The position numbers and the translations under genes are program-made. From the NCBI GenBank assembly GCA_030612405.1, contig JAUWNY010000002.1, forward strand, positions 1-36,849: a stretch of 36,849 nucleotides of DNA, read 5' to 3'. Positions 2,291 through 33,403 of this stretch are shown here, piece after piece. Positions within the stretch are counted from its first letter, which is position 1; each line of letters begins with the position of its first letter. The notes beneath the pieces were generated by a model, which saw nothing but the letters and a program-made list of their open reading frames with translations, did not search any database and had not been told where the DNA came from. The DNA is from Candidatus Methanophagales archaeon. GTDB lineage: Archaea > Halobacteriota > Syntropharchaeia > Alkanophagales > Methanospirareceae.

Positions 2291-3349
2291 TTATACGTAT
2301 TTCCTCTCCACCAGTACTTCGGCATTCAATATGGACGCACCCGCAGCACCTCGTACCGTATTGTGACCCTGTGCAATGTACTTCACCTCGTTCTTCATTC
2401 TTCCTGCTCTTATTCTCCCTACCGATACACTCATACCCCTCCCGGCATCACGGTCTAACCTGGGCTGCGGTCTATCCTGTTCCTCACGCAGTATTATAGG
2501 CTTCTCAGGAGCAAAAGGTGTTTTTATGTCAGTGGTGAAGTCCTTAAACGCCTTCTTAGCTTCTTCTTCAGTTATGCCTTCCTCAAACTTTACCCATATC
2601 ACCTCGGTATGACCATCCATCACCGGAACCCGATGACAAGAAGCACACACGTTGAATGCGGCGTTTTTTATTCCTGAACCTTCTTTTTCCACGGTGCCGA
2701 GAATCTTCAGCGGTTCACTTTCCATCTTATCTTCTTCACTTTCTATAAACGGTATCACGTTATCCAGAATCGCCATTGACGGCACACCTGCATATCCCGC
2801 ACCCGATACCGCCTGCATGGTTGACACCCGCACTTCTTTTATCCCGTATCTCATCAGCGGTTTCAAACTCAACGTCATGACGATGGCCGAACAGTTAGGA
2901 TTTGTTATGATGAATCCGTCCCATCCCCGCTTCTCTTTTTGCACCTCGATTAATGCTAAGTGGTCGGCGTTTATCTCAGGAATGACCAGAGGCACATCAG
3001 GCTCCATTCTATGCACCGAGACATTACTTGCCACGCAATATCCTGCCTGTGCACATCTCTTCTCTACCTCGCTTGCAACCGAGCCAGGCAAAGCAGAAAA
3101 CATAATTGCGATGTCTTCGTTCTTTGAAGTATCCACATCGTTCAGTGATTGCACTACCATCTCTGCTGCTTCCGCGGGCATCTCATAGGGAAGAAACCAC
3201 TTCGATACCTCGCGGTATTTCTTACCCGCACTTCGTTCAGAAGCAAACAGCGATTCGAGTTCAAACCAGGGGTGTCCATCCAAAAGCTGCACAAATCGCT
3301 GCCCTACGCTTCCGGTCGCACCTAATACTCCAACTTTTATTTTTTTCAT
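2291..3349 (-). CDS. asd: Aspartate-semialdehyde dehydrogenase (archaeal type)
   Basis: GVLGATGSVGQ Rossmann motif, catalytic NPNCS, SGAGY, HNTVRGAAGAS. Confidence 0.97.
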   Translation of the reverse strand: MKKIKVGVLGATGSVGQRFVQLLDGHPWFELESLFASERSAGKKYREVSKWFLPYEMPAEAAEMVVQSLNDVDTSKNEDIAIMFSALPGSVASEVEKRCAQAGYCVASNVSVHRMEPDVPLVIPEINADHLALIEVQKEKRGWDGFIITNPNCSAIVMTLSLKPLMRYGIKEVRVSTMQAVSGAGYAGVPSMAILDNVIPFIESEEDKMESEPLKILGTVEKEGSGIKNAAFNVCASCHRVPVMDGHTEVIWVKFEEGITEEEAKKAFKDFTTDIKTPFAPEKPIILREEQDRPQPRLDRDAGRGMSVSVGRIRAGRMKNEVKYIAQGHNTVRGAAGASILNAEVLVERKYV

Positions 3350-3412
3350 TGTATATAAAGTATAACTTCTTTCTATTTAAGACACGGATTAACACTGATT
3401 TACGCGGATTTA
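3349..3412. repeat. Dispersed repeat, left-arm copy (TTGTATATAAAGTATAAC head + ACACGGATT-type 9-mers)
   Basis: Near-identical head at 15011, 23801 and 25157, partial at 20360. Confidence 0.8.
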
Positions 3413-8649: not shown

Positions 8650-8731
8650 AACCACGAGATTACACAAGATTAACACAGAAGAGAGAAAATAAAAAGAAAA
8701 ATCCCGTGAAAATCTGTGTAATCTTGTGGTT
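8650..8731. repeat. Inverted-arm element with 9-mer tandem arms, inside the operon
   Basis: AACCACGAGATTACACAAGATT ... AATCTGTGTAATCTTGTGGTT are near-perfect reverse complements. Confidence 0.8.
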
Positions 8732-8762
8732 ATAAATTGACACGGGAGGGATAAAAGAAGAA

Positions 8763-14702: not shown

Positions 14703-15020
14703 ATGGATAAAAATTTCCATGAGGCAGTATTGAAGTTGGTAAAGCAAATACCAGAGGGTAAAGTAACAACTTATGGTGAGATAGCGAGAGAAATAACAGG
14801 TTCAGTCCATGCTGCTCGTGCTGTTGGACAGGCAGTTGCTACAAATCCGTATCCTATTGTTGTTCCTTGTCATCGTGTCGTGAGAAGCGATGGAGACATT
14901 GGAGGTTATAGTTTGGGTGTGGATAAGAAGATAAGGCTTTTGAGCGCGGAAGGAGCAGAGATAAAAGGGAGAAAGGTGTTGAATTTCGAGCAAAGGCTTT
15001 TCCTTTTCGATTGTATATAA
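14703..15020 (+). CDS. ogt: O6-methylguanine-DNA methyltransferase (single-domain MGMT)
   Basis: IPEGKVTTYG, ARAVG and active-site PCHRVV. Confidence 0.9.
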   Translation: MDKNFHEAVLKLVKQIPEGKVTTYGEIAREITGSVHAARAVGQAVATNPYPIVVPCHRVVRSDGDIGGYSLGVDKKIRLLSAEGAEIKGRKVLNFEQRLFLFDCI

Positions 15021-15297
15021 AGTATAACATCTACCTATTTAGGACGCAGATTTACGCGGATTTACGCAGAAAACTATTTCCTCAAACTATCAAATGCCTT
15101 ACGTTTAACTTCCAGTTTAGTGTCAAAATTAAATTCTATCATCCTTGCATTCTCATAAACCTTTTCCAGAAAGCCATAACCCCTTTATTATAAACTCAAT
15201 AGAAGATTCTAATAATCCCCTCCGCCAATTCCTTATATTTTAAATCCTGATTATCTGCGGTCATCTGCGTCCGATTATCAAAAATTATTCTTTCTTG
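15011..15297. mobile_element. Inverted-arm repeat element carrying a GxxExxY remnant
   Basis: Arms GGACGCAGATTTACGCGGATTTACGCAGA and ATCTGCGGTCATCTGCGTCC; both ends match 23801-23956. Confidence 0.7.
15074..15264 (-). pseudogene. GxxExxY (PD-(D/E)XK-like) protein remnant with stop, frameshift and internal deletion
   Basis: MTADNQDLKYKELAEGIIRIFY*VYNK / GYGFLEKVYENARMIEF joined to NFDTKLEVKRKAFDSLRK*. Confidence 0.85.
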
Positions 15298-15348
15298 CTT
15301 TAAAAAATAAAAGAAGAGGAAGAAGTCCTCCTTATACTTTGTATTTAC

Positions 15349-16429: not shown

Positions 16430-16921
16430 TTGCGATTCGTGACTGACAGGATGTTAGGAAAGCTAAGCACGTGGCTTCGTATTCTTGGGCACGATACCGT
16501 TTTTGCTGCGGACATAACGATTAATAAAGACGAAGAAGACGAGGACAATGCTCTTATCTCTTTAGCGAAGCAGGAAGCACGAATATTGCTCACCGGGGAT
16601 AAAAATCTCGTGCTGGCTGCAAGGAAAAAGGGTGTGCAATGCGTTCAAATAAAAACCGATGATGCGATGGAACAGTTAGAGGAGCTGCTTCGGCATAATA
16701 TCGCCTTAAACCTCGAACCCGTTCCGGTCAGGTGCAGCGAGTGCAATGCAAGGATAAGGAAAGTAGAGGGTGGGGAAGAAGAGATACTGAGAGAGAAAAG
16801 TTATGTGCCAAAGAGCAAGATAGGAGCGTGGGATTTCTGGGTTTGCGAACGCTGCGGTAGGATATACTGGGAAGGGAGTCATTGGGAGAATATGCGTGAG
16901 CGGTTAAAGGAGTTGAAATAA
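16430..16921 (+). CDS. Mut7-C RNase (PIN-fold, DUF82) domain protein
   Basis: FVTDRMLGKLSTWLRILGHDT, RCSECN, CERCGRIYWEGSH; TTG start after GAGGAAGG. Confidence 0.9.
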   Translation: MRFVTDRMLGKLSTWLRILGHDTVFAADITINKDEEDEDNALISLAKQEARILLTGDKNLVLAARKKGVQCVQIKTDDAMEQLEELLRHNIALNLEPVPVRCSECNARIRKVEGGEEEILREKSYVPKSKIGAWDFWVCERCGRIYWEGSHWENMRERLKELK

Positions 16922-16968
16922 GGAGGCGGCAGGAATTGTGTGGTGGCTTCTAAATCGCAGGGCATCAC

Positions 16969-17019
16969 ATTTGGTATATTAGCAAATATAAACACATTAG
17001 AATCCACAAAAACTCTCAT
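16969..17019 (-). pseudogene. 5' stump of a VapC/PIN toxin
   Basis: MRVFVDSNVFIFANIPN begins in an ATGA overlap with the antitoxin stop, then loses PIN similarity. Confidence 0.65.
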
Positions 17020-17255
17020 TTTGTCCACAACTCTTCTTCAAGCTTTTTTAAATTCTGACGCATCCGTTCTCGATTTATATGTGCTGGTTTTTCAATAATC
17101 TCCATAAGTGAATCTTTCTGTTTTATCCTCTCCAGAATTATTTTTTCTTTCGTTTCTGCTCGTAACAAAAAACGGTCTGTAGGTTTTATATTAAAGCCGT
17201 CACTAACACGCTTTAATGGTATTTTGTATTCCTCATCTACTTCTACGATTGGCAT
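17016..17255 (-). CDS. AbrB/MazE-like antitoxin (VapB)
   Basis: 79 aa; VEVDEEYKIPL...F.IKP.D.F swapped-hairpin pattern; precedes the PIN stump. Confidence 0.65.
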   Translation of the reverse strand: MPIVEVDEEYKIPLKRVSDGFNIKPTDRFLLRAETKEKIILERIKQKDSLMEIIEKPAHINRERMRQNLKKLEEELWTK

Positions 17256-17341
17256 TTTTCTCCCTCTTATATTTCACCTGTTTGGTTTATGTGTACTTGT
17301 ATATGATATTCTTTTATTAAAAACCACAAGATTTTAAAGAA

Positions 17342-18055
17342 ATGTTTATGAAAACTACCGAACAACTGTATTGCATACAGGAAGAAATCGCATCAAAGGC
17401 GATAATAGAAGACAAACTAAGTTTAGAAGGCTTAAAATTAATAGCAGGTGCAGACCAGGCTTTCTTCTACGAATCAAAAAACAATACTGAAAATAAAGAC
17501 AAAGACGAAGCCAAAGATAGACAAGAGAAAATAATATCTGCGGTTGTAGTGCTCGAATACCCCTCCATGAGACTTGTCAATTATTCATACTCGGTGCTGC
17601 CTGTGGATTTTCCTTATATTCCCGGGCTTCTTTCGTTCAGAGAAGCGCCAGCCATAATAGACGCTTTTCACGCACTTGAAAACACAACCAAGCCCGACCT
17701 GTTAGTAATAGATGGTTGCGGGGTAAACCATCCGAGGTTTGCGGGATTAGCCACGCATGTAGGCGTTGTTCTGGACGTAGCGACCGTGGGTGTGGCAAAG
17801 AACCTCCTGTGTGGCAGTGGTGAAGTGCCGATGACCGAAGGCGAAGCGCGTATGATAAAATACAAAGGTAAAGAAATAGGATACTATCTCAAGAGTAAAA
17901 GGGGCTGTAGACCTATAATCGTAGCGCCAGGGCATAAAATATCGCTACAAAGTTCGCTGCGGCTGATAAGAAACTGCATCCGTAAGCATAAACTACCTGA
18001 ACCTACACGAATGGCGCATTTATATGCGAACAAGATAAAGAAGGAATTGGGATAG
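17342..18055 (+). CDS. nfi: Endonuclease V
   Basis: GADQAF, PYIPGLLSFRE, DGCGVNHPR, GVAK, KLPEPTRMAH. Confidence 0.95.
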   Translation: MFMKTTEQLYCIQEEIASKAIIEDKLSLEGLKLIAGADQAFFYESKNNTENKDKDEAKDRQEKIISAVVVLEYPSMRLVNYSYSVLPVDFPYIPGLLSFREAPAIIDAFHALENTTKPDLLVIDGCGVNHPRFAGLATHVGVVLDVATVGVAKNLLCGSGEVPMTEGEARMIKYKGKEIGYYLKSKRGCRPIIVAPGHKISLQSSLRLIRNCIRKHKLPEPTRMAHLYANKIKKELG

Positions 18056-18376: not shown

Positions 18377-18439
18377 AACCACAAGGTTACACAGCTATCC
18401 TATTCCGCATTCCTTCTTTTTTGTGTTAATCTCGTGGTT
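18377..18439. repeat. Degenerate inverted-arm element (same family as 8650)
   Basis: AACCACAAGGTTACACAG ... TGTGTTAATCTCGTGGTT. Confidence 0.65.
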
Positions 18440-20336: not shown

Positions 20337-20359
20337 GTTCTATAAGATTGGTTGCAAAT

Positions 20360-20552
20360 GTATAACTTCCTTCTTTTTAAGACACAGATTTACATAGATT
20401 AAGCGAGTTTAGAGGTTTAGCTCGTTAGCGGCTCAGTCCCTTTGACCAAAACGCTAAACCACCAAACCGCTAAACCGCTAAACCGCTATATTATCATCTG
20501 TGTTAATCTGTGTAATCTGTGGTTAATATTTTTTCATGTTAATCTCGTGGTT
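20360..20552. repeat. Composite repeat: 9-mer inverted arms enclosing 8-mer (AAACCGCT) inverted arms
   Basis: ACACAGATTTACATAGATT ... GGTTTAGC ... (AAACCGCT)x3 ... ATCTGTGTTAATCTGTGTAATCTGTGGTT. Confidence 0.75.
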
Positions 20553-20568
20553 TATTAATTGCAATTTG

Positions 20569-21306
20569 TTACTTCGTTCGTAGGCGAAGCAAAGGCACAG
20601 GGATACTCCCATCATGGACTGCGGTAGCAACCAGAGCGCCTTTTACGCCTATCTCTTGCATCTTATCTACATCTTCACAACCGCTAACGCCGCCACCACA
20701 CAGGATGTTATGTTCTGAGGCGTCAACGGCACGAGCGAGGAAATCGAAGTCTATCCCGCTTTTTGTTCCTACTCTGTCCAGTTCCAGCACGATTACGTCC
20801 CGTACACCGCGATACTCGTTCAACTCGTTTAGTAGCAGCAGCGGGTCCGTCTGCACGTGTTTATCCTTCGTCAGCACTTGTTTATTGAAAAGATCAACGC
20901 TTACGCTTACGTTTATGTCTAAATTCTCGTTTTTCGATACCTCGTCAATCAATTCCATAGACGCCGTTTCTGTTCCTAAAATGATACTATCGGCGATTTC
21001 AGCTTCAGCAGCTTCTTCCAGGTCGGCTACCGTTTTTACACCATAATCTACCATTATTCTCGCTTTTCTGTTAGTATCCCTTATCTCCTTTATTATCCCT
21101 TTATTAGAACCCGTGCCCATAAGCCTGTTCAGGTCAGCGATATAAACATCCGCAGGTTTTAGCTCTTCTATGATACGGACAGGGTCCGAGGAGTCAACGA
21201 TAGAACTGAAGAGATGAACTGGCTCGTATTTCTCTCGCTCTCCTCGCTTCGCATGCACTACTACACCGTCGAGCAAATCCAGCACAAAAATCAGTCTGAA
21301 GTTCAT
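20569..21306 (-). CDS. HisA/HisF-related TIM-barrel protein (methanogen/H4MPT-linked hisAF_rel type)
   Basis: IFVLDLLDGVVVHAKRGEREKY, YIADLN, LELDRVGT, GGGV, GALVATAVH; probable start ATG 21306. Confidence 0.85.
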   Translation of the reverse strand: MNFRLIFVLDLLDGVVVHAKRGEREKYEPVHLFSSIVDSSDPVRIIEELKPADVYIADLNRLMGTGSNKGIIKEIRDTNRKARIMVDYGVKTVADLEEAAEAEIADSIILGTETASMELIDEVSKNENLDINVSVSVDLFNKQVLTKDKHVQTDPLLLLNELNEYRGVRDVIVLELDRVGTKSGIDFDFLARAVDASEHNILCGGGVSGCEDVDKMQEIGVKGALVATAVHDGSIPVPLLRLRTK

Positions 21307-21339
21307 GGTTCTATAATTATAGTCATTCCGAAAATAATT

Positions 21340-21371
21340 AACCACAAGATTACACAGATTTTCACAAGATT
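21340..21371. repeat. Solo arm of the 9-mer repeat family
   Basis: AACCACAAGATTACACAGATTTTCACAAGATT. Confidence 0.7.
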
Positions 21372-21407
21372 ATTTATAAAACTTTGTTGTTTTATTTATT
21401 TAGAAGA

Positions 21408-22730
21408 ATGCGAATAGAAAGAGCCCGAGGCACGAGAGATTTCTTGCCTGAGGAGATGAGGAAGAGACGAACAATGGAAGCGCGGATGCGAGACATCGCA
21501 GAGAAATGGGGCTATGGAGAGATACAAACACCCAGTTTTGAGCGCTCTGAACTGTTCACGGTTAAATCAGGCGAGGGAATCCTGAAGGAAATGTATGAAT
21601 TCCGCGACAAGGGCGGCAGGCATTTAGCACTGCGACCTGAACTTACCGCTCCGGTGATAAGAATGTACGTTAACGAGCTGAAGATGGCGCCGAAACCGAC
21701 GAAGGTTTATTATTTCGGCAATTGCTTCAGGTATGAAGAGCCGCAGAAGTCGCGTTACCGGGAGTTCTGGCAGTTCGGCGCTGAGATAATCGGGTCTGAC
21801 CGACCGGAGGCGCAAGCGGAAATAATCGCACTCGCTTACCATATTTTGGAGGGTTTAGGCATACACATAAAGGCAGAGCTGTACGTGGGTCATGTAGGTC
21901 TGATAAGAGAAGTATTACGAGCTGCAAATGTCGAGGCGGAGAGGATAAACAGCGTGATGAGATTAATAGACAAAGGAGAAAGAGAAGAGGTAATCGAGCT
22001 TTTGCGTGAGACGGGTGCAAAAAAGGACTTGATTGATGATTTGATAAGCCTGGTGGATTTAAAGGTAAAGGTAAAGGGTAAAGATGCACTAAAGGAAGCA
22101 CGTGAGCGCGAAATAATTGTTTCTGACAGCGATGCGGCGAAGGAATTGGAGATGCTGCTGCAAATACTCGATTATTACGGCGTTGTATATACTTTAAACC
22201 CTGGAATAGCCCGTGGTCTGGATTATTACACGGGAATGGTATTTGAGATATACGAAACAGGAGGCAGGTTAGGCGCACAGAATCAGATATGCGGTGGCGG
22301 TTCCTATCGGCTGGCTACTTTGTTCGGCGGTGATGACACGCCTTCTACGGGTTTTGCTTTTGGCTTTGACCGGTTAGCAGAACTATTCCCACAAGAAACA
22401 TCGGATTTGAAGCGAGGTGGAGTAGTAGCGGTGGTGATGCCGATACGAGAAAAAAATGCAGACCCGACGGCGGAGGTAGTTGAAGAGGCGATAAAAATAG
22501 CGTCCAGGCTGAGAGAACACATTCCCACGTATATAGACGTGATGAGCAGGAATCTGAGCGCTCAGTTATCTTATGCCAATGCCCTTAATGCTTTGTTTGC
22601 CGTGCTTGTAGGCAGAACCGAAATAAGAGAAGGGAAAGTAACAGTGAGAAATTTAGAGACGGGAGAGCAAGAGAAAATAGGCGTAGAGGAATGCGTTAAA
22701 AAGATAAAAGCGTATTTCGCTGTGGACTGA
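21408..22730 (+). CDS. hisS: Histidine-tRNA ligase
   Basis: RGTRDFLP, LRPELT, FRYEEPQ..RYREFWQ, ARGLDYYTG, GGGSY. Confidence 0.97.
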   Translation: MRIERARGTRDFLPEEMRKRRTMEARMRDIAEKWGYGEIQTPSFERSELFTVKSGEGILKEMYEFRDKGGRHLALRPELTAPVIRMYVNELKMAPKPTKVYYFGNCFRYEEPQKSRYREFWQFGAEIIGSDRPEAQAEIIALAYHILEGLGIHIKAELYVGHVGLIREVLRAANVEAERINSVMRLIDKGEREEVIELLRETGAKKDLIDDLISLVDLKVKVKGKDALKEAREREIIVSDSDAAKELEMLLQILDYYGVVYTLNPGIARGLDYYTGMVFEIYETGGRLGAQNQICGGGSYRLATLFGGDDTPSTGFAFGFDRLAELFPQETSDLKRGGVVAVVMPIREKNADPTAEVVEEAIKIASRLREHIPTYIDVMSRNLSAQLSYANALNALFAVLVGRTEIREGKVTVRNLETGEQEKIGVEECVKKIKAYFAVD

Positions 22731-22734
22731 ACTG

Positions 22735-22803
22735 ATAGCGGGTTAGCGGTATAGCGGTTTGGCGGATTAGCTAACGAGCTGAACCGCTAATAAACTAAAC
22801 CTC
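22735..22803. repeat. 8-mer (TAGCGGTT) tandem/inverted repeat between convergent hisS and purM
   Basis: TAGCGGGTTAGCGGTATAGCGGTTTGGCGG ... AACCGCTA; related to 20402-20488. Confidence 0.65.
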
Positions 22804-23781
22804 TAATTTCACATCCCCTACTTTTATCCCTCTCGCCCGCTCCACGACTTCACCCACGATTTTGCCCCCTGTTACCCGGATAGCTTCCTGCTCCTCGCTT
22901 TTCGGAATTACTACCGCGAAGCCCATACCCATATTGAACGTTTTATACATCTCTTCATCTGTTATATTGCCAAGTTCCTGAATGAATTTGAATATGTCAT
23001 TCGGCACTAAAGGGTCGTGGATGTCGAAGCCGAGGTACGTGATTCTTCGCAGTTTCAGAAACCCACTGCCCGTTATATGTGCCAAGCCATGCACTTCACA
23101 CCTTTCCAGCAGCTCTAAAACCTCTGTATATATCCTCGTTGGCGTGAGTAACTCTTCACCTATGCTTATCGAAGGATTGTATTCAAAGGGGGAATTGTAA
23201 TCCAACCCTGCTGCTTCTATTACTTTCCTCGCGAGTGTTAACCCATTGCTGTGTATTCCCGAACTTTTCAGCCCCAGAACCAGGTCGCCTATTTCTATCT
23301 TTTCGCCTCGTATTACCCTATCCTTTGAAACATATCCTACGCAAGTTCCAGAAAGGTCTAAATCGTTTACCAGTTCTGGTAGTATCGCCGTTTCACCACC
23401 CACGATAGAAATATCCGCAATTCGCGCTCCTTCTTCTAATCCCTTGCCTATTTCCGCGGCAATTAACTCATCTGGCTTTTCCATCGCGAGATAATCAACA
23501 AACGCAATGGGCGTTGCCCCTACACAGTAAACATCGTTGACATTCATCGCGATGCAGTCTATACTGATGGTATCCCATTTGTTTAGCTCTGCAGCAATCA
23601 GGACTTTCGACCCGACACCATCGGTGGAAATAGCGAGCAGATGCTGCGTATCAAAAGGGAGTTCAAAAAGGCCGGAAAACCCTTTTAACTCCTTTATCCG
23701 GGTCATCTCCGCGGATAGCGCCTTTACAACTCCTTGTTCCTTTTTTATGTCCACGCCTGCTTTTGCGTATGTCCACGGCAT
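22795..23781 (-). CDS. purM: Phosphoribosylformylglycinamidine cyclo-ligase (AIR synthetase)
   Basis: YAKAGVDI, DGVGSK, GGETA, SSGIHSNG, HITGSG, FNMGMG. Confidence 0.97.
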   Translation of the reverse strand: MPWTYAKAGVDIKKEQGVVKALSAEMTRIKELKGFSGLFELPFDTQHLLAISTDGVGSKVLIAAELNKWDTISIDCIAMNVNDVYCVGATPIAFVDYLAMEKPDELIAAEIGKGLEEGARIADISIVGGETAILPELVNDLDLSGTCVGYVSKDRVIRGEKIEIGDLVLGLKSSGIHSNGLTLARKVIEAAGLDYNSPFEYNPSISIGEELLTPTRIYTEVLELLERCEVHGLAHITGSGFLKLRRITYLGFDIHDPLVPNDIFKFIQELGNITDEEMYKTFNMGMGFAVVIPKSEEQEAIRVTGGKIVGEVVERARGIKVGDVKLEV

Positions 23782-23800: not shown

Positions 23801-23956
23801 TGGTATATTAAAGTATAACTTCTACCTATTTAGGACGCAGATTTAGCGGATTTACGCAGAAAACTATTTCCTCAAATTATCAAATGCCTTACGTTTTTTA
23901 AAATCCTGATTATCTGCGTTCATCTGCGTCCGATTTTCAAAAATTATTCTTTCTTG
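23801..23956. mobile_element. Minimal derivative of the GxxExxY inverted-arm element
   Basis: Both ends near-identical to 15011-15297; interior reduced to an in-frame 19-aa fusion MNADNQDFK-KRKAFDNLRK* (23864-23923, minus). Confidence 0.72.
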
Positions 23957-25122: not shown

Positions 25123-25156
25123 GTTTGCCTAATGCTTATCGTAGAGCTTTTTTTAA

Positions 25157-25308
25157 TTGTATATAAAGTATAACTTCCTTCTATTTGAGACACGGATTTA
25201 CACGGACTTATTTTAATTTAACATTGTTGATTTTTATCATCTGTGTTAATTAAGCCCTTTCTTGGCTTGCGGAGACGTGGGCAGAGCCCACGAGCGTTAA
25301 TCTGTGTC
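25157..25308. repeat. Inverted-arm element whose right arm is interrupted by a 45-bp hairpin insertion
   Basis: Head TTGTATATAAAGTATAAC, ACACGGATTTACACGGA; GTTAAT repeated at 25245-25250 and 25296-25301. Confidence 0.7.
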
Positions 25309-25331
25309 AACGATTTATTTTCTTGTGAAAC

Positions 25332-25348
25332 CGAAAAGCTTTTATACC
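25332..25348 (+). promoter_or_regulatory. BRE-TATA promoter of the giant surface-protein gene
   Basis: CGAAAAGC-TTTTATAC matches the archaeal consensus, about 240 nt before the ATG. Confidence 0.6.
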
Positions 25349-25583: not shown

Positions 25584-28500
25584 ATGAGAAAAAGAAAAAG
25601 CATTGCGGGAAAAAAGGATGTGAAACGAGCAATAGTGATGTTTGCAATTGTAATTGCAGCGTTAGCATTGTTCAGCATAATGCCAATGCCGGTCAGTGCA
25701 GATGCACCCGGAAATCCTGGCGCCGGGTGCCACTCGGAAACTAAATACTATGGCACAATCAACGGCGGCATGTACTTCGAGCAATATGGTTTTTTGCAAT
25801 TCCGTTCAATGACCAAGACCTTTGATAATGTGCCTGACGGAATAAAATTTGCTCGTGTGTACACCGGTGTGTGGGCTGGCTCTCCAGGTAAAGGTGGCAA
25901 ATTCAACATTACCATCGCTAATGCCACCAGCTCTTACACCACTACCACATATCAAGCATGTGACCCATGCCCTGGAGAACCATGTGCAGACTATCAATCT
26001 CTGCGATGCGATACGCTGAACTGGTCTGGCAACGTGCCACCGAACGTTCCGTCAGGCGATATACACGACTATGTCACTGGCTGCAACGTCCATTTTATCA
26101 GCTATAATGCAACGCCATATATAACTCCCGGAAGCAACACGATAACAGTTAACACTAGCTGCAGTGATAATTGTACTTGCTGGGACGGCAGGATATACCT
26201 TGCTGCTCTTCTCGTTGTGTATGAGGATGCGAGCATGCCGGAGATTACGTACTGGATCAATGAAGGAGCGCCGTTTATGGAAGATAATAGCACGTGCGAC
26301 GGCCCTGATGACCATCTCAACATTTCTTTCTATTTCAACGGCACACACATAAGCAACCCGGCAAAAGTAAAGTACTGGACGTTGGGTTTCCCGCATGTCG
26401 CTAATGCAACCACGGAGCCGGCATACATGAAACTCAACGGAAACAGCATCGGTGAGTATGACTATATGGAGAAGTATGGTGGATATGAAGTTTTCTACCG
26501 GTGGGACGATATACCACCTGGTTATTTAAACCCGTCAAGCAATCTCTTCTGTTACTCTAACCCAAATCCTTTTTATGAGCGTGTTAACGTTGCTGCGTTG
26601 ATATTGGAAGGAGAATCACCAACACCAACACCCACGCCAGCACCAGCACCAATAACAGAACAATGGAACATGACGTTCGGAGGAGCGGGCGATGATTATG
26701 GCTATTCCGTCCAGCAAACCGCAGACGGCGGTTACATCCTCGCAGGCGACACGCGTTCTTACGGCGCTGGTGATGCTGACGTATGGTTGATAAAGACCGA
26801 TTCAAAGGGAAATGAACAGTGGAGCAGAACCTTCGGAGGAGCAGAAGCAGACCTCCTGGACCGCGGCTCCGTCCGGCAGACCTCTGACGGCGGGTACGTC
26901 ATCACAAGCTACACATATTCTTATGGTGCAGATAATGGCAGCGTCTGGCTGCTCAAGACAAATCAAAATGGAAATGAAGAATGGAACAGGACTTTCGGTG
27001 GAGAGGGTCTTGACTGGGGGCATTCAGTCCGGCAGACTTCTGACGGCGGCTACGTCATTGCAGGACGTATAATTCCTCCTTATGCCGGCGATCGTGCCGA
27101 TGCATGGCTTATACGAACCGATTCAAATGGTGTTGAACAGTGGAACAGGACTTTCGGTGCTGATGGCTGCGAGTACGCCGCTTCCGTTCAGCAGACCGCG
27201 GATGACGGTTACGTCATGACAGGACGCACAACTTCTTTCGGCGCTGCCGAGGCTGACGCATGGCTTATACGAACTGATTCAAACGGTATTGAACAGTGGA
27301 ACAGGACGTTTGGAGGAGCAGGTTATGATTATGGATATTCGGTTCAGCAGACCTCTGACGGCGGCTATGTAATAGCAGGGAGCACTAACGGTCGCCAGGA
27401 CGTATGGCTCATAAAGACGCGTCCGGATGGAACAGAAGAATGGAACACTATTTTTGGTGGTCCCGCAAAGGCAGATGAAGGTTATTCTGTCCAGCAGACT
27501 TCTGATGGCGGATACATCCTTGCAGGCTACACGGAGTCCTACGGCACTGCTGGTTCGGCTGACGTATGGCTTATACGGACAGATTCGGATGGTATTGAAC
27601 AGTGGAACATGACCGTAGGAGGAACGGGACTGGAGAAAGGCTATTCGGTCCACCAGACGGCAGATGGCGACTATATCGCAGCAGGATACACAAACTCTTT
27701 CGGCGCTGGTGGTTATGACCTCTGGCTGATAAAATTATCAACTCCAGTAGTGAGGCAAATTGACCTTCTTACAACTGCTCTCGAAACTCCTTCAACGTTG
27801 TATGCTAATTTAACCAACACGATCAGCGCTACGATAAAGAACAATGGCACGGGTGATGCATCTTCGTTCAACGTCTCTTTAAGTGCTGACGGTAGCCCGG
27901 TAGATGAGGTAGTGGTATCAGGATTAGGTGCTGGCAAGAGCACAGCGGTAAGCTTTTCATGGTCTCCTTCCCGCACCGGCGACTTTGAACTTTGCGTAGC
28001 TGCGGACTGCGACTTCGAGGTAAATGAAAGTAACGAAGGCAACAACGTGCTGTGTAAAAATGTGACTGTCTTGCCATTCGAGATTGACCTTCTTCCCACT
28101 GCTCTCGAAACACAGTCAACACCTTATGCCAATTTCACCAACACGATCAGAACTACGATAAAGAATAATGGCACTGGCAATGCATCCTCGTTCAATGTCT
28201 CGTTAACTGCTGGCGACGTCGTGGTGGATAAGACAGGGGTATCTGGTCTGAGTGTTGGGGAGAGCGTAGTTGTGAACCTTTACTGGACTCCTTCCTACAC
28301 CGGTGACTTTGAACTTTGCGTAGCTGCGGACTGCGACAGTAATATAAACGAGAGTGAAGAAGACAACAATGTGCTATGTGAAAATGTAACCGTGTTGTCG
28401 TTCGAGCATCCATGCTGGAACGACACCTTTGACGACGAAACAAAAATCGCTGAGATGCAGAAAGTGGTCGTGAGCGAGGGTGACGTTAAAATAGACCTCG

Positions 28501-31500
28501 AGAATGTTTCGTGGATATGGGAGTCCAATCCTTTGTTGGTCGCTGGACTTGGAACAGCTAATAATCCTAACCCTGCAATAGCCTTCAACATCACCGGGGA
28601 TGAAAAGTGGAACCTGATAGTTGGCGAAAATTACAAGTATAGTGGATTTTACTGGGATGGCACGCAATGGATTAAAAGTTCTTCCCTGGTATCTGGACTT
28701 GCGTGGCACGCAGGACCCAGCGGATCTATTTCACCGACAATTGCTTTTAACATCACAGGAGATGGAAGATGGAACCTGCTCGCTGGAAAGTATTATTATC
28801 CTATGGTCTATGGATATTACTGGAATGGCATGCAATGGATCGAGAATTCTTCACTGGTCGCTGGACTTGGAGGAGGAGGAGGGTCACCGGAATTAGCATT
28901 CAACATCACCGGGGACAGAAGATGGAACCTGATTAACAGGGCGCGCGGATACTATTGGAATGACAACCAGTGGGTAGAAAACCCGTCGCTGGTCGCTGGA
29001 CTGGGAGGCGAGGTACCGGCAATTGCATTCAACATTACTGGAGACGGAAGGTGGAACCTGATCGCCGGACATAGCAGTGGCGAGTTTCTTGGATTCTACT
29101 GGAATGGAACGCAATGGATTAGTGATCCTTCCCTGGTGTCTGGACTGGGTAACATATATCTTCCCCAATCAGTAATAGCCTTCAACATTACCGGGGAGGG
29201 AAGGTGGAACCTGATCGCTGGAGAATTGGGTGGTGATAACAGAAGATTCTATGGCTATCAGTGGATCGTAGAGAAAGGAAGCATGAAATCAGTTGTGATT
29301 CATTCTGTATCGTACTTCAAGAACTGGACTGTATTTAATGCTAATGCTACTGTGCCAGCAGGAACGGGCATCACCTATAAAATCCTTGACGAGAAGAACG
29401 ACACGATAATGACCGTTACGGACGGGCACGATATCTCAGGCATCACTCAAACTTCTATTAGACTATTCGCTGAATTAACCACCGTGAATCCATCTTACAC
29501 GCCAGTGCTGCACGATTGGAGCGTGAGCTGGGAAACGGGAGAGGTTGACCTCCTGCCAACTGCTATTGAAACGCCGGCAAATTTGTATCCAAATGAAACC
29601 TGGAAGATTAGTGCTGCGGTCAAGAACGATGGCGGTGCTCATTCCGGCGGGTTCAAAGCGGCACTATACGCAAATGATACCGAAGTGGATACAGAATTCA
29701 TTGACGATATACCCGCGGGAGAGAGCACAAGTGTAACATTTGAATGGACTCCAAATCATGTTGGAAACTACAATCTTACGGTAATTGCAGATTCTGATGC
29801 TGCAATAACCGAATCAAATGAGACCAACAACGAGTTGACAAAAGAAGTGTCGGTTCTGCATTCCACTGTGCGGAGGCTCACGTTTGATACTAATTCTTCG
29901 ATTAACCCAGCTATAGCAACGGACAGTGAGGGCAACCTGCATTTAGTATGGAGCGATCCCCGAGACAGAAATGGTGAGGGCTGCAAGTGGCATAATGGCC
30001 ATACGGAATGGATTATATTCTATGATCTCTATTACAAGAAGCTCGCACCTAATGGTATGGTGCTGGTGGACGACATAAAATTGACAGAGTTAGCAGGGAC
30101 ACCCTTATCAGCAGTCAATCCAGCAATCGCAGTTGATTCAAATGATAACGTACATGTAGTGTGGGACAATGAGACGTGGACAGGGATTGGGGTTCTTGGA
30201 TGTACCCACAGCACCAGTCCCTATTATATGAAGCTCGATAACGATGGAAACATAGTGGTAGAACCCAAGCTTATAATTCAACTGCCAGAGTATCAATCTG
30301 TTCCAGCAAGAGGAATAGCAGTTGACCACGACGGCAATTTCCACATCGTGGTGGTTAAATCTCGTGTGGAATATGCAGATGTGAAATATAAGAAGTTAGA
30401 CAAAGAAGGCAATGAACTCCTAAATTATACTGTTGATTGCCAGCCTGGTTCAGATAAGAACTGGGCGTATATGGATGTACTTGATATAGCTCTGGACTCG
30501 GACAGTAATGCCCATATAGTGTACACTAAAGGTCCGTGTGGCTGTTATGGTATGGGGTGTGAGAACTATCCTTGTAGGGGTGTACTAAACTGTCAAGATG
30601 CATGGTACGCAAAGATAGATGACGAAGGAGTGCATCTACAAGACTTAAATGGCGACCTTCCGCTTCCTTCTCTGTATCCATCCGTGTGCGTTGATTCCGG
30701 TGACAACAAGCACGTGATCTGGAGCCAGCATAATGGAAGTGGAAGTGGCGATCTATTAGAAGGGGGCGGCTTCGATTTCTACTACTCCAAGTTCGATAAG
30801 TCCGGTAACAAGGTTATAGATGGCAAGCGGCTAACTTATGAGGATTATCTTCCAGAAGGGTATGCTGATGAAGGAGGTTATTACCTACCTGGTGTTGCTC
30901 ATCCAATCGTTGACACCGAATCCGGCGTCATGCACGTAACATGGTCACGGGAATCAGAGAAAGAGATATATTACATGGCATTTGATACCAGCGGCGATGA
31001 GATAACAAACAAGACCTTGATTTCATTTGAAGATGGAGATTCCTGGGAGCCGGGCATAGATGCATGCTCAGATGGTGCACATCTCGTCTGGACCGATAAT
31101 AGAGACGGCAATAATGAAATCTATTATGCGAGGATGTTTCTTCCGGAAAACCGGGTTTTCATACTCTGCCCGTCGGATAAATGGACACCTCCGAATGTGA
31201 ATGCAACTTATGCAATTGGTATCATGCACACGATGCCAGGAAGCGAGACATTCGATCTGACACTGGCTAATCTTGACGGTGCAGACGTTGCCGAACTCAA
31301 CAAATCTGCCATAACGCTGAACCCCAATGATATCGGTGAAGTAATCCTGAACGTTACGGATGCCGTTTTAGGTGATTACCGGGTGAAGGTAAACGTGGAA
31401 TCGCAATCAAACCCGGGGATAAATACCAGTGCAATCATAACCACGAGCGTTATTACGCCAAAGCATGATTTAGTCATAACGGCAATGGATGCATATCACA

Positions 31501-33236
31501 ACAACACTGCCGAATCGCCCTGGTTCAACCTATCAAACGAGGTGGACGTTGAGGTGAAGAACGTTGGTACTGCCGATGCTGGCGCGTTTAACGTGAGTTT
31601 GTATGCAGACGGTGAATACGTTGATAAGAAAAGGATATCAGACTTAGGAACCGGGAGTTCTACAATCCTGCAGTTCAAGTGGACTCCGGTTGGAGCGGAC
31701 TGCTTCAAGGACTGCTCCTTCACCGATACGTCCCGGGACTACAATCTCTCCGCGGTAGCTGACTGCGACAACGAAGTGAACGAGAGTGATGAGACGAACA
31801 ACAATTTGACGGAGGTGGAAAAAGCATGCTACAATGGCTACATGGCAGATGAGCCTCTGGAAAACGTTGCACACGGCTTGCTTCATGGCGGGCTACTGTT
31901 CACGACTGGAGATGGAACATACGGCGGTCTGTATAGCCCCGGTGATTCGATAGATACAACCTACGAAATAACGCTTCCAGCGGGTGCATCGGTTGTGCTT
32001 GCACGCCTTAATGTTTACTACACATGGCATTATGAAAAGGACAGTTGTCCCGCGATGGAGGTGAGCATTGATGGAACCATTGTTCCACTTGACGTGAGCT
32101 ACAACGACATCAAATGCTACGGGGCGGCGTGGGTCTTCCCCTGGGGTAACTACGTGTATAACCTGACAGACTACATCCAGGGTAACGGCACTTACACGGT
32201 GACCGTGAAGAGAACAGGGGGTCCAAGCTTCTGCATCGCCGCTCCGGGCATTGAAGTGCTTTACGAAGACGAGACCAGGCCGCTCATAGAATACTGGATA
32301 AATGAAGGAGCAGACGTTCTGATTGGAGGCAGAAGAGGGGATGGCGGACATCTATCTTTAGAAGAGTGCATAAACAACGCAACGTTCCCGGGAAACGTTG
32401 ACGCGGGTAAAGTGGAGAATGCAACGCTCGGCGTGGTGTCGCCGTGGGCTGGAGCAGCATGGACGCCCGGGATGACAAACTACCTGTTCTTCAACGACTT
32501 TGAGCTTGGACAGGGCGTGTATCATGACGAAACGTATGAAGAAGCAATAGGCGGCATATCAATGCACATAGGAAGCACGGGTGCGCAGGTCGGTGTGAAT
32601 CTGAGTGACGTAACGGATTATCTGCTGGCAAGCGACAACCGGGTTGGTCAGGGCGATGACGGCGACAACATGATGCCTTGCAATGCGTTTTTGGTGGTGG
32701 AGTACGGAGAAGAACCACCGCCGACAGCGTTCATGGTCTATGGCTGGGTTAACGACAGCACGGGTGCGCCTGTTTTGAATCCGAATGTAACGATAACAAA
32801 TCTGAACACCGCTGAGGTTTTTATTGCAGAGACGAATGCGAGTTCAAGCTACTATCAGGTTCTAACCACCTCAGAGAATGTAAACGCAGGCAATGTGCTG
32901 CGCTTCTATGCGAGTGACAATGGAAACAAAACAGAGTTCAACCACATGGTTATGCAAGAGGAGATGGATACTGGTGGCTTCGAGCAGAATATAACGGTCG
33001 TGGGTGTGCCAGCAGGAATATGCGGCGACGTTGATGGTAAAGGAGGAGTGACAATGTTTGATGGAAGACAAATATGGATGAACATCATCTACGGCGCCGG
33101 GGATTATCCAATTGCGAATGAATGGGTGGCAGACGTTGATGGTAAAGGAGGAATAACCATGTTTGACGGAAGGCAGATATGGATGAACATCATCTATGGT
33201 GCAGAAGATTATCCGCTGACCTGTAAACCCTTTTAG
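25584..33236 (+). CDS. 2550-aa secreted cell-surface protein: DUF3344 - PT linker - beta-propeller - 2x CARDB - Trp-rich repeats - CARDB - propeller - CARDB - DUF3344 - Ig-like - dockerin
   Basis: Signal peptide; YWINEG motif twice; WNRTFGG...QTSDGGY repeats; ESNExNN CARDB ends; duplicated DVDGKGG(V/I)TMFDGRQIWMNIIYG. Confidence 0.9.
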   Translation: MRKRKSIAGKKDVKRAIVMFAIVIAALALFSIMPMPVSADAPGNPGAGCHSETKYYGTINGGMYFEQYGFLQFRSMTKTFDNVPDGIKFARVYTGVWAGSPGKGGKFNITIANATSSYTTTTYQACDPCPGEPCADYQSLRCDTLNWSGNVPPNVPSGDIHDYVTGCNVHFISYNATPYITPGSNTITVNTSCSDNCTCWDGRIYLAALLVVYEDASMPEITYWINEGAPFMEDNSTCDGPDDHLNISFYFNGTHISNPAKVKYWTLGFPHVANATTEPAYMKLNGNSIGEYDYMEKYGGYEVFYRWDDIPPGYLNPSSNLFCYSNPNPFYERVNVAALILEGESPTPTPTPAPAPITEQWNMTFGGAGDDYGYSVQQTADGGYILAGDTRSYGAGDADVWLIKTDSKGNEQWSRTFGGAEADLLDRGSVRQTSDGGYVITSYTYSYGADNGSVWLLKTNQNGNEEWNRTFGGEGLDWGHSVRQTSDGGYVIAGRIIPPYAGDRADAWLIRTDSNGVEQWNRTFGADGCEYAASVQQTADDGYVMTGRTTSFGAAEADAWLIRTDSNGIEQWNRTFGGAGYDYGYSVQQTSDGGYVIAGSTNGRQDVWLIKTRPDGTEEWNTIFGGPAKADEGYSVQQTSDGGYILAGYTESYGTAGSADVWLIRTDSDGIEQWNMTVGGTGLEKGYSVHQTADGDYIAAGYTNSFGAGGYDLWLIKLSTPVVRQIDLLTTALETPSTLYANLTNTISATIKNNGTGDASSFNVSLSADGSPVDEVVVSGLGAGKSTAVSFSWSPSRTGDFELCVAADCDFEVNESNEGNNVLCKNVTVLPFEIDLLPTALETQSTPYANFTNTIRTTIKNNGTGNASSFNVSLTAGDVVVDKTGVSGLSVGESVVVNLYWTPSYTGDFELCVAADCDSNINESEEDNNVLCENVTVLSFEHPCWNDTFDDETKIAEMQKVVVSEGDVKIDLENVSWIWESNPLLVAGLGTANNPNPAIAFNITGDEKWNLIVGENYKYSGFYWDGTQWIKSSSLVSGLAWHAGPSGSISPTIAFNITGDGRWNLLAGKYYYPMVYGYYWNGMQWIENSSLVAGLGGGGGSPELAFNITGDRRWNLINRARGYYWNDNQWVENPSLVAGLGGEVPAIAFNITGDGRWNLIAGHSSGEFLGFYWNGTQWISDPSLVSGLGNIYLPQSVIAFNITGEGRWNLIAGELGGDNRRFYGYQWIVEKGSMKSVVIHSVSYFKNWTVFNANATVPAGTGITYKILDEKNDTIMTVTDGHDISGITQTSIRLFAELTTVNPSYTPVLHDWSVSWETGEVDLLPTAIETPANLYPNETWKISAAVKNDGGAHSGGFKAALYANDTEVDTEFIDDIPAGESTSVTFEWTPNHVGNYNLTVIADSDAAITESNETNNELTKEVSVLHSTVRRLTFDTNSSINPAIATDSEGNLHLVWSDPRDRNGEGCKWHNGHTEWIIFYDLYYKKLAPNGMVLVDDIKLTELAGTPLSAVNPAIAVDSNDNVHVVWDNETWTGIGVLGCTHSTSPYYMKLDNDGNIVVEPKLIIQLPEYQSVPARGIAVDHDGNFHIVVVKSRVEYADVKYKKLDKEGNELLNYTVDCQPGSDKNWAYMDVLDIALDSDSNAHIVYTKGPCGCYGMGCENYPCRGVLNCQDAWYAKIDDEGVHLQDLNGDLPLPSLYPSVCVDSGDNKHVIWSQHNGSGSGDLLEGGGFDFYYSKFDKSGNKVIDGKRLTYEDYLPEGYADEGGYYLPGVAHPIVDTESGVMHVTWSRESEKEIYYMAFDTSGDEITNKTLISFEDGDSWEPGIDACSDGAHLVWTDNRDGNNEIYYARMFLPENRVFILCPSDKWTPPNVNATYAIGIMHTMPGSETFDLTLANLDGADVAELNKSAITLNPNDIGEVILNVTDAVLGDYRVKVNVESQSNPGINTSAIITTSVITPKHDLVITAMDAYHNNTAESPWFNLSNEVDVEVKNVGTADAGAFNVSLYADGEYVDKKRISDLGTGSSTILQFKWTPVGADCFKDCSFTDTSRDYNLSAVADCDNEVNESDETNNNLTEVEKACYNGYMADEPLENVAHGLLHGGLLFTTGDGTYGGLYSPGDSIDTTYEITLPAGASVVLARLNVYYTWHYEKDSCPAMEVSIDGTIVPLDVSYNDIKCYGAAWVFPWGNYVYNLTDYIQGNGTYTVTVKRTGGPSFCIAAPGIEVLYEDETRPLIEYWINEGADVLIGGRRGDGGHLSLEECINNATFPGNVDAGKVENATLGVVSPWAGAAWTPGMTNYLFFNDFELGQGVYHDETYEEAIGGISMHIGSTGAQVGVNLSDVTDYLLASDNRVGQGDDGDNMMPCNAFLVVEYGEEPPPTAFMVYGWVNDSTGAPVLNPNVTITNLNTAEVFIAETNASSSYYQVLTTSENVNAGNVLRFYASDNGNKTEFNHMVMQEEMDTGGFEQNITVVGVPAGICGDVDGKGGVTMFDGRQIWMNIIYGAGDYPIANEWVADVDGKGGITMFDGRQIWMNIIYGAEDYPLTCKPF

Positions 33237-33325
33237 AAAACACTTTCTTTCTAAAAACTTTTTTGCTTCGCAAAAACCTTTACTAAAAATTCGCTTCGCA
33301 GAAAGAACCTGTACTAAGAAAGAAA
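33237..33325. repeat. A/T-rich dispersed repeat, also at 33881-33924 and 34721-34770
   Basis: AAAACACTTTCTTTCT ... AAAGAACCTGT(A/G)CTAAGAAAGAAA. Confidence 0.65.
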
Positions 33326-33403
33326 CCCTTTTTGCAACGCAAAAAGCCTTTACTAAAAGATATGCGTTTTTTGGGAAAGAAAGTTTGTTGGTAAAGCTTT
33401 TCT

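Follow-up and report, generated by a model that had tools for sequence, protein, structure and literature searches.

Within the 36,849-nt stretch of a Candidatus Methanophagales genome analysed here (contig JAUWNY010000002.1; "the window" in the following), a dead GxxExxY (PF13366) gene lies between inverted arms on the minus strand, at 15012-15298. With high confidence we assign it to a mobile family resembling miniature inverted-repeat transposable elements (MITEs), which derives from an arm-bracketed GxxExxY cassette. No target duplication accompanies the entry of the unit into a site or its loss from one; existing copies degenerate where they are, down to solo tails, and the interior is exchangeable between unchanged arms. 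By analogy with other nuclease-repeat pairs, the cognate nuclease might drive this movement, a proposal for and against which we see the odds as even. The layout of the window copy is as follows:

15016..15298, minus strand: whole inserted unit, a non-autonomous cassette copy; flanks joined directly in G004, G007, G002 and G003, same ends in the alignment of 29 copies
15273..15298, minus strand: head, 26 nt, A/T-rich, outside the arm and about 23 nt upstream of the ATG; conserved across the aligned copies
15244..15272, minus strand: head (5') arm, three 10-nt-phased units GGACGCAGAT-GA-CCGCAGAT-AA-TCAGGAT
15264-15262, minus strand: ATG, within the second unit of the head arm
15196..15264, minus strand: N-terminal gene fragment of 22 codons, closed by a CGA>TGA stop (relative to the intact gene of G001)
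15074..15181, minus strand: frameshifted fragment GYGFLEKVYE...KRKAFDSLRK*, scoring only 12.4 bits against PF13366
about 15129-15132, minus strand: junction of a 200-nt internal deletion, within the frameshifted fragment
15042..15071, minus strand: tail (3') arm, three units, the inverted partner of the head arm
15012..15041, minus strand: tail, conserved 30 nt, terminating in an outward-facing TTTATATA box

According to the copy alignment and the comparison with empty sites, the element reaches 26 nt (head) and 30 nt (tail) past the arms. The head is probably an archaeal promoter and is missing from the bacterial relatives L060 and L061 (see below). Three lesions separate the window copy from the intact gene: the CGA>TGA stop, a 1-nt deletion and the 200-nt deletion, which shows 4 nt of microhomology. 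The remnant is 93-96% identical at the DNA level to intact genes, which themselves score 145 bits with PF13366, compared with 12.4 bits (E 0.27; curated cut-off 22) for the remnant. A preliminary description of this DNA had proposed inverted arms of tandem 9-mers around a decayed gene that keeps GFLEKVY and the C-terminal KRKAFDSLRK and has its start codon inside the arm. Arms, dead gene and start codon are as described, and both peptide motifs can be read on the minus strand; the arm unit, however, is a ACGCAGAT core plus 2 nt with a period of 10 nt (matches at 15046 and 15056). While the G-x-x-E-x-x-Y motif is retained as GFLEKVY, the catalytic D...E-x-K core was removed with the 200-nt gap, and for this reason the copy is considered dead.

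Four congeners (G004, G007, G002 and G003) are empty at the window site, their flanks being joined directly as TTTTTGATT^TTAAAAAATAAAAG. The insert corresponds to 15016-15298 (283 nt) with at most 1 nt duplicated; G005 carries another array at this place. All seven congeners searched harbour the element family. The 200-nt-deleted form of the window was also found at other loci in G005 and in G017, a member of another genus. Since the same deleted form sits elsewhere in these two genomes, the window copy moved when it was already dead, and internally deleted forms at new loci therefore moved in trans. At a second locus (EgsA/UPF0179), an intact gene of the C127 type (named after its contig) is present in G000 (this genome), G004 and G001. 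In G003 and G007, the same arms enclose a non-coding palindromic filler of 100 nt. Only a 13-nt arm remnant is left in G002, and G005 has an empty site in which 3 nt are replaced but nothing is duplicated. An open reading frame (ORF) that we take to be an archaeal glycerol-1-phosphate (G1P) dehydrogenase-like gene adjoins one copy. The A/T-rich palindromic module that stands in for the GxxExxY gene between the same arms in G003 and G007 is of the CTTTTTCTTTTT...AAGAAAAGGTTT type, which occurs in the window at 33225-33401 and has 38 matches on 31 contigs.

In the assembly (2.23 Mb, 183 contigs, 85% complete), blastn of the element (E <= 1e-3) yielded 29 copies with head and tail, 3 with the head only and 36 solo tails. 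The longest is the window copy with 287 nt. When aligned, the 29 copies have identical sharp ends and unrelated flanks, and deletion junctions recur (q69>179 in nine copies, q74>176 in four, q69>205 in three). The copies on C77 and C157 have common flanks and may be one locus assembled twice. A deletion series leading from an autonomous element to small derivatives, as suggested in the preliminary description, can be seen directly in these data: junctions are common to several loci, the 200-nt deletion recurs in G005 and G017, and one orthologous site has decayed to unequal extent in G004 and G002. This is the site of the copy at 23802-23956, which was said to keep both ends but only 19 codons and indeed has exactly 19. 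G004 carries the same copy there; in G002 further deletion left only the tail and 17 nt of the head. Gene 22795-23781 starts 20 nt downstream of the tail of this copy.

Metagenomes from cold seeps and marine sediments contain DNA of the window. Three DNA studies showed the arms at 200-400 times the depth of their flanks, and many contigs end at 15010-15013 and 15295-15302. Filled junctions were bridged, and at least 12 internal skips of 68-146 nt were seen in the metagenomes; among the joints listed, none skips the whole element. As to target choice, landing inside other hairpins was seen for 6 of the 29 copies versus 8% of random intergenic points when scored by a heptamer regex, and for 5 of the 29 versus 14% when scored by TRF arrays (p 0.38). 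An ISDra2-like targeting of TTGAT (the empty site reads ...TTGATT^) was considered as well and dropped, as the flanks of the other copies share no common word.

Each arm is a tandem array without a hairpin in itself, and pairing is confined to that between the two arms (z -2.8 as DNA, -1.9 as RNA). The two arms are complementary over their outer 10 nt in 27 of 27 copies; the second unit is mostly complementary as well and the third is not, with one to four units per arm across copies. The 2-nt spacer was complementary in none of the 27. Complementary cores combined with spacers that never pair fit protein binding sites better than they fit a stem. Genome-wide, we counted 415 phased heptamer arms versus 4 in a shuffled control, and neighbouring arms at most 100 nt apart were oriented forward-then-reverse in 89 cases and reverse-then-forward in 3.

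Intact cognate genes, encoding a protein of 131 aa (PF13366, 145 bits), are present in three congeners, G001, G002 and G006. All three have the same head and arms as the window copy, two of the three also the same tail. Intact GxxExxY genes of this lineage do, in other words, carry these arms, and sites are filled in some genomes and empty in others, as described above; neither of the two findings that the preliminary description had named as refuting it was made. The three loci differ and their flanks are unrelated, the elements being 96-97% identical over 469 nt. In G002, ATA replaces the ATG, and an in-frame start is available upstream. With pN/pS values of 0.06-0.17 among the three copies, the cognate gene is under purifying selection. 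An alignment of 78 proteins shows no variation at E34, D73, E83 and K85, and G31, E34 and Y37 of the name-giving motif are conserved in it. PF13366 is the only Pfam domain in the cognate protein; a GIY-YIG domain was not detected. An AlphaFold2 model (pLDDT 93.4) has as its nearest solved folds Cas4 SSO0001 (E 1.7e-4, TM 0.55), LHK-Exo and lambda exonuclease, and Hjc, while a sequence search found no relative among solved structures (best E 0.86). PADLOC gave only weak Cas4-like matches (E 0.001-0.006), which we did not read as a defence role.

This genome also encodes two intact GxxExxY genes of other lineages, on C127 and C133 (TIGR04256 scores of 160 and 140 bits), each framed by its own arrays. 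In the genus and family we distinguish four protein lineages, with 100%, 52-54%, 50% and 39% identity to the cognate protein, and four arm types: ACGCAGAT; ACACGGAT; CACRAGAT; and CGCNGAG or CACAGAGGA. Arrays flank each of the 15 intact genes examined, at a distance of no more than 160 nt on either side, and some of these genes lie between two complete hairpins. The closest relatives of the archaeal cassette come from two bacterial metagenome-assembled genomes, L060 (Proteobacteria) and L061 (Deltaproteobacteria). Both have the same GGACGC.GAT arms without the archaeal head or tail, the protein being 79-81% identical and the DNA 85% identical over 374 nt, and one of the two has a deleted gene-less copy in addition. 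These similarities point to a fairly recent exchange of the cassette between the domains.

For a wider survey we used the best 80 of 564 confirmed relatives, mostly bacterial, of which 77 had both flanks. A bracketing inverted repeat scoring at least 14 was found at 46 of the 77 loci versus none of the 77 with swapped partners; the best upstream-versus-downstream inverted repeat had a median score of 16, compared with 8 for swapped partners. With the narrow heptamer pattern, arms on both sides were seen in the expected orientation at 17 of the 77 loci, in the opposite one at 2, and at none after shuffling. The commonest heptamer spacing in the surveyed loci was again 10 nt. Arms and gene travel together across Archaea and Bacteria.

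According to our proposal, the autonomous form would be a selfish cassette of about 0.5 kb, consisting of the head, a three-unit, helically phased ACGCAGAT arm, the 131-aa GxxExxY PD-(D/E)XK gene with its start codon within this arm, the inverted arm and the tail with its outward TATA box. The cognate protein would recognise the heptamers of its own arms and cut at or near them; repair of the break, whether templated by a filled copy or achieved by end capture, would then spread the cassette and its gene-less derivatives. Such a mode would parallel that of REP-associated tyrosine transposases (RAYTs) with repetitive extragenic palindromic (REP) sequences and that of Ssn nucleases with NTS repeats.

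Several observations weigh against this proposal and have to be kept in mind. This genome, which is 85% complete, yielded no intact gene of the cognate type. Nor was a PF13366 gene found (E <= 0.001) in five further genomes with element matches: G003 (25 matches, 75% complete), G022 (14, 61%), G009 (5, 98%), G008 (4, 85%) and G010 (3, 81%); these match counts are not copy numbers, and copy number versus presence of the cognate gene is unusable as a comparison. The unit ends 26 and 30 nt beyond the arms, and cuts made only at the arms do not explain such ends. A hydrolytic PD-(D/E)XK nuclease is by itself unable to rejoin DNA. Genes of PF05635, which encode four-helix-bundle proteins and not nucleases, are bracketed likewise by arms of other tandem units, so that the layout need not be made by the enclosed protein. 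The genome also contains a Y1 transposase gene, a 217-aa Y1_Tnp ORF (G000, C13:3644-4036, minus strand) without heptamer arms nearby; its profile match is in two pieces, which suggests an insertion within the domain. RNA data contributed a single 161-nt contig of a deleted copy (run X17), from which neither transcription nor processing can be read, and the promoter role of the tail (see below) depends on a crude ORF caller.

The Y1 gene leads to the most serious competing explanation, which we nevertheless consider unlikely: the arms would be hairpin repeats moved by another enzyme, either of the Y1 IS200/IS605 or RAYT-like type or a host factor, with GxxExxY as a passenger or as a homing-type parasite that cuts pre-existing arm pairs and is copied into them. 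Movement of the IS200/IS605 type is known to leave no target duplication, in keeping with our sites. Gene-less hairpins far exceed genes in number (cf. the 89 close forward-reverse arm pairs), copies occur in genomes without a detected PF13366 gene, one orthologous locus has identical arms with different interiors, and PF05635 cassettes share the layout. Against this explanation, each of the four co-resident protein lineages has its own arm type, and arms and gene cross domains jointly and without the host-specific parts. Moreover, the Y1 gene on C13 has no heptamer arms around it, the arms differ from the self-folding subterminal hairpins of IS200/IS605, and a clean insertion carried arms plus a gene remnant into an arm-free site.

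Movement without any dedicated transposition is improbable. Here, general recombination, slippage and template switching at repeat-rich intergenic DNA would shape the copies, and the gene would be kept for a cellular function. The lack of target duplication, the microhomology at deletions and the variable unit number (1 to 4) would all be expected, as would the exchange of modules in highly variable intergenic regions, and three species have retained the intact C127-type gene at one and the same locus. Against such an origin stand the 29 copies with identical sharp ends in unrelated flanks, the precise entry of one 283-nt unit, the presence of one deleted form at several loci in three genomes and two genera, and hundreds of metagenome junctions with the same ends. 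That the arms are instead fixed regulatory or RNA-processing signals (operator arrays, or a stem around the mRNA like that of an intervening sequence) and not mobile at all is very improbable: arms can pair, tail-plus-arm modules lie upstream of gene starts, and PF05635 genes are known from 23S rRNA intervening sequences, but the stem measures just 10 + 8 bp with spacers that never pair, RNA evidence is almost nil, and the presence/absence polymorphism and multi-copy deletion derivatives run counter to it. As a sole explanation, this last reading is contradicted by the empty sites and the spread of the deleted form; it could survive as a secondary use of retained copies.

Such a use is conceivable for the tail. 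Its TATA modules have a co-oriented ORF start within 150 nt in 36 of 69 cases, compared with 7 of 69 for the opposite orientation. Of 32 solo tails, 23 point towards a gene start, and full copies have a gene end on the head side in 20 of 24 cases (all with the crude ORF caller). The pattern fits promoter donation or selective retention, and we infer that neighbouring genes can use retained tails as promoters. Upstream of gene 17342 (window 16921-17342), five congeners have wholly different sequences; a gene-less cassette copy is present there in G004 and another element in G002, both of which put a TATA module directly at the annotated ATG. This site and that of G001/C173 were tried as clean junctions and rejected, being polymorphic with differing fillers.

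Returning to the proposal of a cassette spread by its own nuclease, no published description of such a cassette was found in the literature, although subscription journals or supplements may contain one. The pertinent entry in PMC3424549 presents PF13366 as a very large family and lists its function as unknown; GxxExxY is otherwise named just in passing in the literature found. The closest published system is that of the Ssn (GIY-YIG) site-specific single-stranded DNA nucleases with their NTS/SRM hairpin repeats (Chenal et al. 2025, PMC11893778). There, too, a small single-domain nuclease gene has its own repeat on both sides and the repeat occurs in hundreds of copies; protein-repeat pairs co-vary, and the authors liken the layout to insertion sequences. 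Nuclease fold and repeat type are different, and the GIY-YIG domain is missing from our protein. The biochemistry of Ssn is known, whereas GxxExxY is known here from sequence; conversely, movement was not shown for Ssn, whereas we see filled and empty sites and spreading deletion derivatives.

REP sequences and REPINs with their RAYTs, which PMC11893778 discusses as well, are likewise short, intergenic inverted-repeat units present in tens to hundreds of copies, with few gene copies framed by the same repeats and gene-less doublets spread in trans. The RAYT is a HUH/Y1 enzyme and the REP one palindrome, as opposed to a PD-(D/E)XK protein and arrays of 10-nt-phased heptamers here. In the present family the gene lies inside the arms and derivatives retain gene ends; intact copies occupy different loci in close species and cross domains. 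The gene enclosed by the repeats is PF13366, and the Y1_Tnp ORF is located elsewhere without these arms. A self-folding subterminal hairpin at each end and a TnpA or TnpB gene inside, as in IS200/IS605 elements, were not found either.

With MITEs and their autonomous parents the family has in common terminal inverted repeats, internal-deletion derivatives, many copies, intergenic location and mobilisation in trans. The copies are small and non-coding, have terminal or subterminal inverted repeats and are numerous, and an intact gene-bearing relative is present as a candidate autonomous partner with a predicted enzyme role. The differences are the lack of a DDE transposase, the conserved, non-inverted head and tail outside the repeats, and the lack of a target-site duplication (the insertion at 15016/15298 duplicated no more than 1 nt, and the EgsA locus, with its 3 replaced nt, shows no duplication). 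Free-standing homing endonuclease genes are also small selfish nuclease genes that spread by break and repair, and the exchange of the interior between constant arms would fit such a mode; the present element differs in that it reaches non-homologous sites in the genome and leaves gene-less derivatives.

Taken in its widest form, our proposal would make GxxExxY a new class of mobile-element enzyme: a PD-(D/E)XK protein of 125-130 aa that reads phased arm heptamers and drives the duplication-free spread of cassettes and MITE-like derivatives throughout Bacteria and Archaea, including the recent exchange between ANME-1 (anaerobic methanotrophic archaea of group 1) and deltaproteobacteria, and in archaea also scatters promoters. 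We put this forward tentatively, at somewhat less than an even chance. If true, the link to mobile cassettes would give PF13366 a testable role, would add a third nuclease fold to the nuclease-repeat pairs after Y1/RAYT and GIY-YIG/Ssn, and would account for a large part of the repeat load and hypervariability between the genes of ANME-1 genomes. ANME-1 archaea are uncultured, and repeats fragment their assemblies. The cassette has multiplied in these methane-oxidising archaea and occurs in many bacteria as well; it offers a small, predicted sequence-reading nuclease to study and a means of tracing DNA passed between bacteria and archaea that oxidise methane. As for the interpretation given in the preliminary description, the deletion series, the shared arms and the polymorphism have held, the 9-mer units had to be replaced by 10-mers, the list of relatives mixes families, and the nuclease step stays a proposal.

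The further copies and relatives in the window are:

23802..23956, minus strand: second copy, deletion form q69>205, with the 19-codon ORF at 23923-23864
3348..3412, minus strand: solo tail and arm of the ACACGGAT type, beside the start of gene 2291-3349
20340..20402, minus strand: solo tail and arm; a full gene-less copy is present at the orthologous site of G001
25148..25335, minus strand: gene-less hairpin element with tail, of the type flanking the 52-54% GxxExxY lineage
8650..8735, no strand assigned: empty hairpin of the CACRAGAT arm family, to which the arms of the intact C127 gene belong
21330..21374, plus strand: solo arm of the CACRAGAT family

The preliminary description had grouped pieces at 3349, 8650, 18377, 20360, 21340 and 25157 as empty or solo-arm relatives of the window copy. 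Those at 3349, 20360 and 25157 are tail-bearing pieces of the ACACGGAT type. Hairpins or arms are also present at 8650, 21340 and 18377, but these are of the CACRAGAT type that frames the intact C127 GxxExxY gene, the one at 18377 being degenerate, and the list as a whole mixes at least three arm families. The arm of the element at 25148-25335 is split by a nested 46-nt GC-rich module (25251-25296). This module of about 46 nt (TAAGCCC...GGGCAGAGCCCAC...) was also seen in heptamer arms at L030 (G001:C245), C137 and C97, and 36 blastn matches were found in the genome, 18 of them at least 40 nt long. The module resembles a smaller insertion aimed at the arms.

PF05635, the family of 23S rRNA intervening-sequence proteins, has eight matches in this genome, including genes with arms of tandem units such as GGTTTAGC (period 8). 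Genes bracketed by inverted tandem-unit arms of their own kind are located in G000 at C18:5233-5547, C181:7200-7514, C61:3866-4180, C4:28359-28523 and C107:11311-11601. As in the GxxExxY cassette, a small ORF lies between inverted arms in multiple copies; the protein is unrelated to GxxExxY and the arm units are others, with a period of 7-8 (GGTTTAGC and others). These genes form a second cassette class beside GxxExxY.

Inverted arrays of an 8-nt unit, GCTAAACC (37 nt, 89% complementary), at 20409-20489 and 22735-22806 of the window enclose a segment of 2.2 kb that carries two genes, 20569-21345 (minus strand) and 21384-22730 (plus strand). The segment is missing in G001 at the orthologous place, and the same unit type frames the PF05635 genes on C18 and C181. 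Finally, a 2550-aa ORF at 25584-33236 of the window contains several series of internal repeats, whose periods are roughly 156-162 nt and 130-168 nt.
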